From assembly GCA_947642635.1 (NCBI GenBank), contig CANRTI010000001.1, positions 75,252 to 139,251 on the forward strand: DNA of 64,000 bases. The letters run 5' to 3'. The translations under genes and the position numbers were made by a program. The notes beneath the pieces are model-generated. The model was not told where the DNA came from. It made no database searches and saw only the letters and a list, made by a program, of their open reading frames with translations. Below are positions 53,134 through 56,478 of this stretch, one piece after another. How positions within the stretch are numbered: position 1 is the first letter of the stretch; each line of letters starts with the position of its first letter. The DNA comes from an uncultured Mycoplasma sp. Lineage in GTDB: Bacteria; Bacillota_I; Bacilli_A; RF39; UBA660.

Positions 53134-54087
53134 TTAAAATTTAGTTATTTTCGACATAACCAGTTCACGATATTTTATAAATTCTTGATCAGTTGGATTT
53201 ATTTGTAAAACATATAGTATTTGTCCATATAGTTTATTTAAATATTTTAAAGCATCAATGTTTATATTTAATTTACTTAAATGAGATTTTATGCCAAATT
53301 TTTTTATATAATACATTTCTTGCCGAATTTTATGGCGATACTTAACACCAACTTGAGCTTTTTCATTAACAACAATTCCAGTTACATTTTGCGATTTTGA
53401 ATGATTGATAATGTGAATTTTTTGATTATTTAATTCTAAATTTATTTTCGCAAGCATTTTTCTTACTCTAATTATTATATCAGTAGGATTAAAATCTCCT
53501 GAAAAAGTCATATCATCTGAATAACGGGTATAATCTATTTTGTTTAATTCGCACCAGGCTCCTATTTCTTCATCAAAATCTTTCATTATTAAATTGGAGA
53601 TGTAAGCGGAGGTTGGAGAACCTTGGGTTAAATGGTCTTTATAAGTGCATAATTTTGTTAAAATTATTCCTACTGGTTTAGGAAAATATTCAATCGAAAA
53701 CGCCTTGGTGTAAACATGTATAAAAGAAATACTTTCAAAAAAATTTTTTATATCTAATTTTAAAATAATTTTTTTATGAATATGGGGCATTACATTATCT
53801 TTTAAAGATAGTCCTTTGTGATAACATTTAGCATATTTTGATATTTTTTTATTATTTAAAATATTTAATAATATATTTCTTTGAATGCTTTTTAATAAAT
53901 CATTAGGTTCGTAAATTGTTCTAAAACTACCATTATGCTTTTTTATTTTATATATTTTATAATTTTTCGAAATATTATTACTTAATGAATAAAGCGTTTT
54001 TATATATTTATTTTTATTTTGACAATTAAATAAATGAAGAGATAGTAAAAATTCATTACATTCTTTAGAACCAATGTATTTCCACAT
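53134..54087 (-). CDS. stand-alone reverse transcriptase, retron-type
   Basis: FRTIYEP, KLDIKNFFESI, TQGSPTSAYISNL, YTRYSDDMTFSG (YxDD). Also NVTGIVVN (retron-typical VTG) and DNVMPH (NAxxH-like). 317 aa with no extra domains. The ATG at 54087 follows AAAGGAGG; the track's upstream extension was rejected. Confidence 0.85.
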   Translation of the reverse strand: MWKYIGSKECNEFLLSLHLFNCQNKNKYIKTLYSLSNNISKNYKIYKIKKHNGSFRTIYEPNDLLKSIQRNILLNILNNKKISKYAKCYHKGLSLKDNVMPHIHKKIILKLDIKNFFESISFIHVYTKAFSIEYFPKPVGIILTKLCTYKDHLTQGSPTSAYISNLIMKDFDEEIGAWCELNKIDYTRYSDDMTFSGDFNPTDIIIRVRKMLAKINLELNNQKIHIINHSKSQNVTGIVVNEKAQVGVKYRHKIRQEMYYIKKFGIKSHLSKLNINIDALKYLNKLYGQILYVLQINPTDQEFIKYRELVMSKITKF

Positions 54088-54099
54088 TTTACTACCTCC

Positions 54100-54283
54100 T
54101 TTAGTTGTGCAGTACTTAATGATATTGTAATATGGAAAATGAACTCTATAAGCGTAATGCAATGAAGCGCCTACACCACGTGTAGATTAGTTCTTTTGAA
54201 ATATTACTATTTATATATTATAAATAAATATAGTCCCTTAACGACTCGTTAAAGTAGGAAAATAATTCCAATCACTACTGCAA
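54100..54283 (-). ncRNA. candidate retron msr-msd non-coding RNA
   Basis: Extended -10 TGCTATAAT (54288-54296, minus strand). TGCAGTA (54276-54282) is complementary to TACTGCA (54108-54114). Internal hairpins at 54236-54254 and 54171-54185. The region ends at the RT RBS. Confidence 0.45.
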
Positions 54284-54361
54284 TTTTATTATAGCATAAA
54301 ATTATTATTTAAACTATTTTATAATATCTAAAGTAATTAATCTTTTTTTATTAAATAATAA

Positions 54362-55426
54362 TTATTGTTTTCTTTGGTTATTACCTTGAGAAATATTTGG
54401 ATTATATTCTTCAATACTAGAATAATTTAAGTCATCTTGCTTTTGACGAGCAATAACCATTTCTAATAAATGCAGTAAAATTCTTTCTTGTTTATCATAT
54501 TTACTAGTAGTAAAGTTCTCACCTGCTTTTCTCTTTCGTTCTATAAATGCTAATCTCTCTTGTCTATTAAATGCTAAATCACTTTTAATAATTATGATAA
54601 GGGATGAAATGTCAGTAGCTCTTTTATCTAAATTTGAAATATACTCTATTGTTTGAAAATCTATTTCAAGTTCATTTTGTTTAAAAACTTTAGCTATTAA
54701 ATATTTAAGCATTCCTAAAACAGTACTTGTTATAATACATTCTTCATTAATATATTTCAAACCATTAGCGCCATAAATCATTTTAAGAATATTTAGCTCT
54801 TTAATAGTCCAAAAACTTCTTGTGGCATACGGGATTTTTTTCATTGCATTAGCAAACACTTCAAGTCGATATTTTCGCATTGCAATTTTATCCTTTACTT
54901 CTTTTTCTATATCTTTTACTTGAGCTAAATTTATTTCTTCTTCATCATGTAATATATCTTTACCAATTTTTACTTGATATAAACGATAATTATTTGGTGG
55001 GATGGAATCAGCAATCCATTCATCTCCTAAAAAGCCATTATTATAATGTCCTTTTAAAGTATCTGTAATAAATGGCTTACGAATATTTAAACCTTTTGGA
55101 TTTATTTCATATATAACGGCAACTGAAGGAATTAAAATTCTTTGATAATTTATTTGTAAAGAATTATCGACAGGAATTCCATCATGATGTAGTGAACCAT
55201 AAGCTGCTAAAACCATTTGAAGATTGTCACTCATATAAACTCCATATTCATTTCCATCAATTACTGTTTTACGACCATGTTGATCAATAATTGGATCATA
55301 ATTAACTTTTAATTCTTGACCAGTAAACTGATAATCTAATAATTTATTATAATCAATTTTTAATCCTCGATATAAAATAGGAGGTTTTCCCTTCATTTTA
55401 AACACTTCTTTCTTACTAATAACCAT
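54362..55426 (-). CDS. 354-aa protein of unrecognised family (candidate retron effector)
   Basis: Clean ORF directly upstream of the putative ncRNA on the same strand. No motif securely assignable. Confidence 0.6.
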   Translation of the reverse strand: MVISKKEVFKMKGKPPILYRGLKIDYNKLLDYQFTGQELKVNYDPIIDQHGRKTVIDGNEYGVYMSDNLQMVLAAYGSLHHDGIPVDNSLQINYQRILIPSVAVIYEINPKGLNIRKPFITDTLKGHYNNGFLGDEWIADSIPPNNYRLYQVKIGKDILHDEEEINLAQVKDIEKEVKDKIAMRKYRLEVFANAMKKIPYATRSFWTIKELNILKMIYGANGLKYINEECIITSTVLGMLKYLIAKVFKQNELEIDFQTIEYISNLDKRATDISSLIIIIKSDLAFNRQERLAFIERKRKAGENFTTSKYDKQERILLHLLEMVIARQKQDDLNYSSIEEYNPNISQGNNQRKQ

Positions 55427-55458
55427 TTAATTTACTCTACATTTTAAATTAACTAACA

Positions 55459-56478
55459 TTAAAGATTTTTTATCTCTTCAATATATGCATAAGTACTATC
55501 ATGATATTGTTCTAATTGATAGTATATACTTCGAGCTACAGTTGAGACTTCAGTTATTCTTTTATTACTATCACCAAAATGCACCAAAGGAAGCGCATTT
55601 CTTTTCTTTGTTTCAAAAGAAATATAAAATCGATTGTTTGGTTTTTGATTGGTTCTAATCAAATTACTTGTTTCATTAAATTTCTTCCAAGATAAAAAAT
55701 TTTGGTGGAATATACTACAAATGTCTTCTTCTTTTTTTACATATAAATCTTCTAGTGATATGAGATTTTTGGCAACCGATAATTTAACAATTTCAGATAT
55801 ATATTTCATCACAAATTTATCAGTATTTCCCTGTAATTCTTTTGCATAATTATAAACCATAAAAGCAAATTTTTCGGCAATCTTAATATTATTAAATCCA
55901 ATCTCTATACAACCTTCCTCATTATTTAAAATAGTCATATCGTCATAAACTTCTTTAATTTGTTCTAATGAATGGGTATGTAGCCATATATAACATGTAT
56001 GTAAAACACCATCTAGTCTATCTGTACAAAGTTTTGGTAATTTATTTTCTAAAACAGGGAAATTTGAATAATCATCTAAATCTTCAAAAGATATATCATC
56101 TTCCCTCAAAAATTTTTGCATTTCTTTATCTTGATTTATTATTTCGATTATACTTTTTTCAGAAGTTTCTTGGTTTATATAATCTCCAAAAACATAATCA
56201 ATACAGTGTGCAAAACATGGAGTCCAAATATCATGTAACAAAGCTATAATAGTCTCTTTTTTATTATGTGTAAAATGCCATGTCATGTGAGCGACAACTA
56301 AACTATGATCAAATCTTGTATATTTAAATAACGGAGAATATAAATTGGTATAATCACAGCCACAAAATTGTGTTATATGTTTTAATCTATTTAAAGTATT
56401 TGTATTTAAATATTTATCTATAAAATCAGGATAGTCAGTATCAATAAAAATATTTAAGTATTGGTTCATATCAATCAT
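55459..56478 (-). CDS. HD-domain phosphohydrolase, SAMHD1/COG1078-like
   Basis: LNRLKHITQ, TRFDHSLVVAHM, ALLHDIWTPCFAH and CTDRLDGVLH parallel the RLxxIxQ, RFEHSLGV, LLHDIGHGPFSH and DRLDY motifs of dNTP-triphosphohydrolase-like HD proteins. Confidence 0.75.
   Translation of the reverse strand: MIDMNQYLNIFIDTDYPDFIDKYLNTNTLNRLKHITQFCGCDYTNLYSPLFKYTRFDHSLVVAHMTWHFTHNKKETIIALLHDIWTPCFAHCIDYVFGDYINQETSEKSIIEIINQDKEMQKFLREDDISFEDLDDYSNFPVLENKLPKLCTDRLDGVLHTCYIWLHTHSLEQIKEVYDDMTILNNEEGCIEIGFNNIKIAEKFAFMVYNYAKELQGNTDKFVMKYISEIVKLSVAKNLISLEDLYVKKEEDICSIFHQNFLSWKKFNETSNLIRTNQKPNNRFYISFETKKRNALPLVHFGDSNKRITEVSTVARSIYYQLEQYHDSTYAYIEEIKNL

Follow-up and report, generated by a model that had tools for sequence, protein, structure and literature searches.

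A clade 2, Ec107-like retron cassette in an uncultured Mycoplasma sp. and its probably unrelated HD and 354-aa neighbours

In this study, we analysed a candidate retron locus of an uncultured Mycoplasma sp. (GTDB lineage Bacteria; Bacillota_I; Bacilli_A; RF39; UBA660). It lies in a stretch of 64,000 nucleotides with a G+C content of about 25% (GenBank assembly GCA_947642635.1, contig CANRTI010000001.1, positions 75,252 to 139,251 of the forward strand), which is called the window below and to which all coordinates refer unless another locus is named. The conserved unit at this locus is a cassette of about 1.2 kb, composed of a promoter, a non-coding RNA (ncRNA) and a gene for a reverse transcriptase (RT), on the minus strand between positions 54321 and 53134. 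We consider it probable, at roughly 0.8, that the locus is a self-contained retron cassette of the clade 2, Ec107-like lineage, and that the two genes preceding it, for an HD-domain protein and for a protein of 354 aa, are unrelated neighbours. The first-pass annotation had instead put forward the HD gene, the 354-aa gene, a presumed ncRNA and the RT as an undescribed retron architecture. The minus-strand open reading frames (ORFs) on which that proposal was built (53134-54087, 54362-55426 and 55459-56478) and the gap of 274 bp between the first two of them (54088-54361) were confirmed. Read along the minus strand, the order is rseP, tRNA-Arg(CCG), two gene fragments, the 339-aa ORF of the HD protein, the 354-aa ORF, the 274-bp gap, the RT and pcrA.

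The 317-aa RT (53134-54087, minus strand) belongs, as judged from its sequence, clearly to the retron clade and to the Ec107-like branch of it, and not to the group II enzymes or the defence-associated reverse transcriptases (DRTs). The 25 highest-ranking matches with PADLOC were without exception models of retron RTs, in agreement with the earlier description of this protein as a stand-alone retron RT. The highest score was obtained with the RT_Ec107-like model (412.7 bits, E = 2.4e-124, positions 2-304 of 307 of the hidden Markov model) and the second highest with RT_III-A (342.3 bits, 6.7e-103), other retron types scoring lower; it is on these profile scores, Ec107-like versus III-A, and not on a tree with reference sequences, that the clade assignment is based. 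Pfam RVT_1 matched at 1.2e-18. The scores with NCBIfam models fell far under their cutoffs for Drt2 (54 bits, cutoff 390), Drt3a (45, cutoff 200) and group II (42, cutoff 300), and the St85 model gave 209 bits, under its cutoff of 235. In the plasmid collection, only matches of at most 44% identity were obtained, annotated as 'retron St85 family'.

All RT motifs quoted in the earlier description are present, namely KLDIKNFFESI, TQGSPTSAYISNL, YTRYSDDMTFSG, NVTGIVVN with its VTG, the NAxxH-like DNVMPH, and the YSDD catalytic box. Where the window has DNVMPH, close homologues and the family consensus read NAIPH, a true NAxxH. The ORF is intact and retains all catalytic motifs, and 2682 homologues of the protein were found. 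It is preceded by a conserved Shine-Dalgarno sequence, AAAGGAGG, at 54102-54095. A longer version of the protein, starting at a TTG codon at 54162, was considered and rejected, as the start of the PADLOC model, like that of every homologue, coincides with the ATG that follows this Shine-Dalgarno sequence.

The gap between the 354-aa gene and the RT encodes a structured RNA of retron type, as the first-pass annotation had supposed. This ncRNA (msr-msd), delimited by folding and covariation, is about 173 nt long and occupies 54109-54281 of the minus strand. It is closed by a terminal duplex of 11 and 15 nt, in which the 5' arm a2 (GCAGTAGTGAT, 54271-54281) pairs with the 3' arm a1 (ATCATTAAGTACTGC, 54109-54123). 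Inside the duplex there are two short msr hairpins (54269-54257 and 54254-54236) and a long msd stem (54207-54127) that carries an inner hairpin (54185-54171). The minimum free energy of the fold is -43.4 kcal/mol (z = -3.8). When an alignment of 30 loci was analysed with RNAalifold, compensatory changes were found in 17 of 31 pairs. In a retron-style structure of 39 pairs, pairing is kept in 97.3% of the cells, and double compensatory changes occur in 18 pairs; shuffled controls gave 6.7+-1.5 such pairs, with none of 500 shuffles reaching 18, and slid partners gave 2-7. Four of the six pairs of the outer helix of the a2/a1 duplex covary. At about 80 loci, with RTs of 55-76% identity, the same ncRNA precedes the RT gene. 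A scan of the 52.5-58 kb region with Rfam matched no retron ncRNA family and detected only the tRNA.

Transcription of the cassette is attributed to a promoter at 54288-54321 of the minus strand, with an extended -10 element, TGcTATAAT, whose hexamer lies at 54293-54288; position 54321 is the 5' limit of homology to L074, one of the fetched loci (designated by L numbers here). The -10 element is conserved across the 30 aligned loci, whereas the sequence further upstream is not. Behind the a2 arm, near-invariant guanosines occur in GATTGG (54273-54268), and the conserved GG (54269/54268) is a candidate site of the branching guanosine.

By analogy with established retron biology, one transcript would hold both the ncRNA and the RT mRNA, and the RT would bind the msr hairpins. 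Priming would then occur from the 2'-OH of the conserved G beside the a2/a1 duplex, and the long msd stem (about 54207-54127) would be copied into roughly 80 nt of multicopy single-stranded DNA (msDNA). As with msDNA synthesis and the branching residue, we infer any role in phage defence from such precedents; if it exists, it would require an effector acting in trans, or none.

The limits of the cassette follow from comparison of related loci. Homology among them begins at the promoter and ends at the RT stop codon, as seen in alignments of both the 5' and the 3' flanks. With L074, 76% identity was obtained by blastn over 1133 bp (window 54321-53201). A metagenome scan with an RT alignment yielded 80 further loci. 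The nearest upstream ORF was surveyed at the 67 loci where 1.3 kb or more of sequence precedes the cassette, and the downstream gene at 61 loci. The upstream neighbours, encoded on either strand, fell into 31 unrelated clusters and the downstream ones into 40. Judging by eye from the translations, the upstream genes include apparent housekeeping genes, namely a 3-hydroxyacyl-CoA-dehydrogenase-like gene, a HAD hydrolase, a TetR regulator, PFOR, a methyltransferase and a transposase. In the loci inspected earliest, three types of upstream gene were seen: a gene for 171 aa, a pair for 172 and 149 aa, and a gene for a 288-aa AAA_15 ATPase. We considered whether the 171-aa, 149-aa, ATPase and 354-aa proteins could be distant homologues occupying one effector slot, and BLASTP showed no relation among them. 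The RTs of highest identity to that of the window (about 75%; L014, L021 and L062) follow the unrelated 171-aa gene, with or without the 149-aa one.

There is one exception to this diversity. A PtuA/AriA-like ATPase of 288 aa (AAA_15; PtuA, AriA and mad3 models at about 1e-15) recurs directly upstream of the cassette in 19 of the 67 loci: L017 (4926-5792), L020, L063, L078-L080, L084, L088, L090, L095-L101, L103, L104 and L116. When the ATPase gene is intact, its distance to the RT start is fixed at 207-215 nt, and its stop codon lies no more than about 25 nt from the -10 box of the ncRNA promoter; truncated copies precede the cassettes of L096, L103 and L104. The RTs that have this ATPase upstream are interspersed in the RT tree order. 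A resemblance to type I-A retrons and to Septu could be seen here, as a PtuA-like ATPase belongs to these systems. Unlike them, the window has no ATPase, the RTs of the ATPase loci are Ec107-like and not of clade 1, and inspection of L017-L020 revealed no HNH (PtuB) partner.

This picture agrees with what has been published on the lineage. No protein is specifically associated with the Ec107 branch of clade 2, and for this branch loss of an associated protein was suggested (Mestre et al. 2020, PMC7736814). In a survey of SPIRE, the group clade2_Ec107like was the second most abundant among retrons (n=192), 93% of it in Bacillota and 91% host-associated; its recurrent accessory architecture was scored as 'absent', and it was regarded as an expansion, with minimal divergence, of a lineage already known (SPIRE survey 2026, 10.64898/2026.05.14.725207). 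Ec107 was omitted from the defence tests of Millman et al. Our survey of loci, with its 31 upstream clusters among 67 loci and 40 downstream clusters among 61, independently reproduces the published picture of a lineage with no recurrent accessory module, and the element in the window fits it. The PtuA-like ATPase is the exception, and since it stands beside about a quarter of the related cassettes, the statement of that survey that there is no recurrent accessory module may hide it. For the cassette studied here, the absence of a dedicated effector encoded in cis probably holds, as it does for its relatives.

The element shares with Retron-Eco5 (Ec107) and the Ec107-like lineage the RT model that it matches best and over the full length, the minimal composition of ncRNA and RT, and, with the lineage, hosts that are gut or host-associated Bacillota. 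It differs in that its sequence is far from that of Ec107 of E. coli, the comparison having been made through a profile and not by direct alignment of the RT or msr-msd, and in that, in the window's species, the cassette adjoins a solitary gene with a possibly ADP-ribosyltransferase (ART)-like product and an HD gene. Type III-A retrons, the sister of the Ec107 branch, are similar in providing the second-best RT match. They employ a phosphoribosyltransferase (PRTase)-like effector, with or without a winged-helix protein, whereas neither neighbour in the window gave a PRTase or winged-helix hit with PADLOC or Pfam, and no retron accessory model was matched.

A lineage that may have lost its associated protein could also be represented here by a relic, that is, by a retron that has lost its ancestral effector (a III-A PRTase or a PtuA-like ATPase) and is now silent or decaying and without function in this genome. 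Loss of the associated protein in the Ec107 branch was, as mentioned, suggested by Mestre et al. (PMC7736814); the truncated ATPase copies in L096, L103 and L104 would fit such a course, as would the frameshifted RT of a sister strain (L008, described below). Nevertheless, we regard this as quite improbable. The RT of the window is intact, with all its catalytic motifs, and the lineage is abundant, as indicated by the 2682 homologues and by n=192 in SPIRE. Moreover, the promoter, the Shine-Dalgarno sequence and the pairs of the ncRNA are kept, the latter by compensatory changes, at RT identities of 55-76%, which argues for purifying selection on the effector-less cassette.

If the cassette stands alone, the 354-aa protein (54362-55426, minus strand) is a neighbour and not a dedicated part of the retron. 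Homologues start at M11 of this ORF (ATG at 55396). Its description as a protein of no recognised family was borne out: Pfam, NCBIfam and PHROGs gave no match, and PADLOC only a marginal one (E1-E2, E = 0.044). No match was obtained by tblastn against phage and plasmid collections. Of the 278 homologues found, a single one reaches 97% identity, the others being at most 63% identical and mostly 405-412 aa long; most also have an acidic C-terminal tail of about 60 aa, which the copy in the window lacks. A profile search gave 218 clusters of the family at 50% identity (examples of the family are P0452, P0490, P0492, P0493 and P0499, and the loci L055-L059 and L061). By genome scanning, 34 species-level loci were found in Bacilli, Mycoplasmatota, Clostridia, Bacteroidota, Ignavibacteriales and Saccharibacteria. 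In none of these 34 genomes is there an RT within 6 kb of the 354-aa homologue, and no conserved neighbour of any kind was found among the 34 loci; the homologues are solitary or stand beside unrelated genes. The family thus evidently works without a retron.

Structural prediction gave a confident model of the protein (AlphaFold2; predicted local distance difference test, pLDDT, 82.5; predicted template modelling score 0.76) with a beta-rich N-domain (about residues 1-165) and a helical C-domain. The motifs LYRG, DGNEYGVYM[ST]DN, GHYNNG..EWI and IG.D.LH are extremely conserved, with YRG and NE.G.YM invariant and E136 nearly so. The best Foldseek hits, pertussis toxin S1 and PltA of E. coli, are weak (E 0.17-0.6, probability 0.57-0.66, TM 0.45-0.47). 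In the model, R20, [ST]66 and E136 are placed on strands in the R-S-E order of ADP-ribosyltransferases, with G instead of Q/E two residues before E136. A search of the PDB with a profile of 36 N-domain sequences returned nothing at E<=10, one with the profile of the full-length family only a spurious match of 0.1 to YhbH in the helical tail, and Foldseek against BFVD nothing significant. Thus, the N-domain may be ADP-ribosyltransferase-like, at roughly even odds, and we treat this as a lead, not as a result. In Saccharibacteria the N-domain occurs alone, and in several proteins it forms the C-terminus of a larger protein. The idea of a polymorphic toxin was considered on account of this position, which is its only support; Pfam found no domains in ten of the longer N-domain relatives.

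The position of the 354-aa gene is at the same time a reason to ask whether it serves the retron in this species. In Retron-Sen2, the RcaT toxin is kept inactive by the RT-msDNA complex and is freed upon phage infection. By analogy, the locus could be a lineage-specific two-part system, in which the 354-aa protein, a toxin and possibly an ADP-ribosyltransferase, was captured as an effector and is held inactive by RT-msDNA, the HD protein being a bystander. Retron-Sen2 (St85) and Retron-Eco1 (Ec86), both of type II-A, serve here only as a model, as their RT-msDNA neutralises a toxin and the 354-aa protein would need this role; the window has no nucleoside deoxyribosyltransferase-like effector such as theirs, and the candidate 354-aa effector accompanies an RT in one species only.

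Several observations speak for such a capture, and some of them also weigh against the reading of a stand-alone cassette. The 354-aa gene is co-oriented with the RT, directly upstream of the ncRNA promoter and 274 nt upstream of the RT, and the slot that it fills is the one taken, at fixed spacing, by the PtuA-like ATPase in 19 of 67 relatives. An ART-like, toxin-like fold, which the matches to pertussis S1 and PltA and the YRG, YM[ST]DN and E136 motifs weakly suggest, would, if real, suit an effector of abortive infection; the location of the N-domain at the C-terminus of some larger relatives is typical of toxins, and the copy in the window is set apart by the loss of its tail. Sampling of close relatives is thin, with no loci between 97% and 76% RT identity, so that the arrangement in the window could be a young functional association, and capture of an effector by this one lineage retains some likelihood. 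The production of msDNA and any phenotype of the cassette are themselves predictions.

On the other hand, none of the 34 other genomes with the 354-aa gene has an RT beside it, the family has no partner gene anywhere, and the gene is absent from the roughly 80 related cassettes outside the species. L074 has its cassette at the corresponding tRNA-Arg and lacks the gene. In L008 (1747-2750), a sister strain with 97-99% identity, a deletion of 8 nt truncates the RT at about residue 270 and the 354-aa gene is intact, which is hard to reconcile with RT-msDNA as an essential antitoxin; this frameshift is seen in a single contig covered about 5x, so that it may stem from a faulty assembly. The assignment to ADP-ribosyltransferases is weak (Foldseek E~0.2), and no link of the N-domain to PDB, Pfam or BFVD entries was obtained. 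We therefore judge the two-part system unlikely. Its more specific form, in which an orphan Ec107-like retron has recently captured, in one gut Bacilli species, a solitary, toxin-like and tail-less protein with a possibly ART-like N-domain and a helical C-domain as its effector, seems to us improbable. If true, it would document the way in which orphan retrons gain effectors, and would add a new class of effector.

The second neighbour (55459-56478, minus strand; 336-339 aa) is a SAMHD1/EF1143-type HD-domain protein, resembling deoxynucleoside triphosphate (dNTP) triphosphohydrolases, and likewise, in our judgement, a neighbour rather than part of the retron. No significant match was obtained with the Pfam HD model, NCBIfam, PHROGs or PADLOC, including the dGTPase models of the latter. 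The earlier naming of the protein as an HD phosphohydrolase was nevertheless upheld, in that a profile of its family matched 2hek of Aquifex in the PDB at 7e-8, and its AlphaFold2 model (pLDDT 81.9) was matched by Foldseek, with probability 1.0, to the EF1143 dNTPase of E. faecalis, 2hek and SAMHD1, the first hit being 3irh (7e-6). The metal ligands H58, H82-D83 and D153/D156 (in DRLD) are invariant; by sequence and model it is a homologue of SAMHD1-like dNTPases, and activity is predicted. It shares with the SAMHD1/EF1143/2hek family the fold (probability 1.0, E to 7e-6) and the motifs RFDHS, LLHD and DRLD, and differs in being about 100 aa shorter, in the GTPCFAH of its own family in place of GHxPFSH, and in W for G85.

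The last of these differences concerns the window itself: its HD protein reads LLHDIWTPCFAH, with codon 85 (56224-56226), beside the metal ligands, specifying W; the residue is G in 90% or more of the homologues. The substitution may have altered the function of the protein or inactivated it. The 480 homologues of the protein form a smooth series of identities at constant length. Those at 71% and 79% identity lie in unrelated contexts, with neither the RT nor the 354-aa gene. In the loci with the 79% homologue (L010-L013, for example L010:199-5751), the HD gene lies between a gene for a 683-aa protein with no family match and an opposite-strand gene for a 490-aa UvrD-like helicase; the 683-aa protein is split into 416 and 254 aa in L013, and this context is possibly accessory itself.

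These results bear directly on the interpretation given in the first-pass annotation, in which the RT, its ncRNA and both neighbouring proteins would make up one new system of retron defence, tripartite or quadripartite. In favour of it, all four elements have the same orientation, the HD and 354-aa genes, only 32-62 nt apart, may be co-transcribed, and no contig of the species departs from this arrangement. Everything that speaks against the two-part system applies here too. In addition, HD homologues as close as 71% and 79% are found elsewhere with no RT or 354-aa gene, an HD homologue is present at a single one of the 34 loci with the 354-aa family, and that one is distant in sequence (36% identity, 4.5 kb away), and the HD protein matches no PADLOC model. 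The three genes occur together only in the window and in relatives 97-100% identical to it (L008 and L025-L027), that is, within the species of the window, and homologous RTs of other genomes lack synteny with the HD and 354-aa genes, an outcome named in the annotation itself as refuting its proposal. We consider this system extremely improbable. The HD and 354-aa proteins are, by the stand-alone reading, probably independent genes that in this species lie by chance between tRNA-Arg and the cassette.

A separate problem is how the locus is related to the tRNA gene. An att-like scar at tRNA-Arg had been reported, and an exact 15-nt repeat of the 3' end of tRNA-Arg(CCG) (57394-57470, minus strand) does exist: CCTTCAAGAACACCA is present at 57394-57408 and at 56581-56595, with 0.09 such repeats expected by chance. 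The repeat pair, however, leaves the retron locus outside. Between the copies there is about 0.8 kb, containing a truncated KilA-N / PDC-S22-like ORF (56912-57193; PADLOC 3e-40, with only positions 30-122 of 281 covered) and a 90-aa fragment (56612-56884) that matches no family; this stretch is a decayed integrated element, and the whole feature, with the tRNA gene and the repeat (56581-57470, minus strand), is adjacent to the retron and separate from it. A third copy of the repeat beyond the RT was sought, and none exists. A tRNA-Arg island comprising the retron locus was rejected on these grounds, as the only two copies enclose the KilA-N remnant and not 53134-56478. Since the repeats bracket only this remnant, the interval from tRNA-Arg to pcrA looks like accessory DNA that has built up piecemeal.

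The cassette itself may have been at this place for longer. In L074 (1-3200), the order is rseP (47% identity), a 302-aa gene, tRNA-Arg(CCG), about 470 bp of non-coding DNA, the cassette, and NUDIX and HIT genes; neither the HD nor the 354-aa gene lies between tRNA-Arg(CCG) and the cassette. The RT of L074 is 69% identical to that of the window and adjacent to it in a rough neighbour-joining order. Thus, the tie of the cassette to tRNA-Arg is shared by the two loci and the presence of the HD and 354-aa genes is not, and the link of the retron to the tRNA-Arg locus looks older than its present neighbours. An exact empty site, with a 354-aa or HD homologue followed by pcrA, was found in none of the fetched loci, and L074 is the nearest substitute.

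On its other side the cassette borders on pcrA, 50 nt separating the RT stop codon from the pcrA ATG (53083). The placement of the locus upstream of pcrA-ligA, as first described, is correct for pcrA; ligA is not next to pcrA, an NTP-transferase gene lying in between. This gene (50086-50985, 299 aa) overlaps the start of ligA by 10 nt, the operon being pcrA, NTP-transferase and ligA, and the same order is repeated in L008 and L026. A promoter-like site for pcrA was noticed at 53106-53134, with a -35 element ATGACT at 53134-53129 and a TG-extended -10 element TATAAT at 53111-53106. As this site overlaps the RT stop codon, the cassette adjoins the pcrA promoter without displacing it. At the far end, before the HD gene, the terminator claimed at 56512-56545 is visible as an AT-rich hairpin of 9 bp followed by a T-run, but it fails a scan for consensus terminators.

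A new type of retron would have followed had the HD protein and the 354-aa protein proved to be effectors; instead, the locus is one more member of the Ec107-like lineage. Two side leads come with it. One is the subgroup of cassettes linked to the PtuA-like ATPase. The other is the solitary 354-aa family, uncharacterised and phylogenetically scattered, with a well-predicted fold and very strong motifs. The locus also illustrates well the question of which function retrons without an effector (orphan retrons) may have: the cassette is found intact, with compensatory changes of its ncRNA, in dozens of unrelated contexts.

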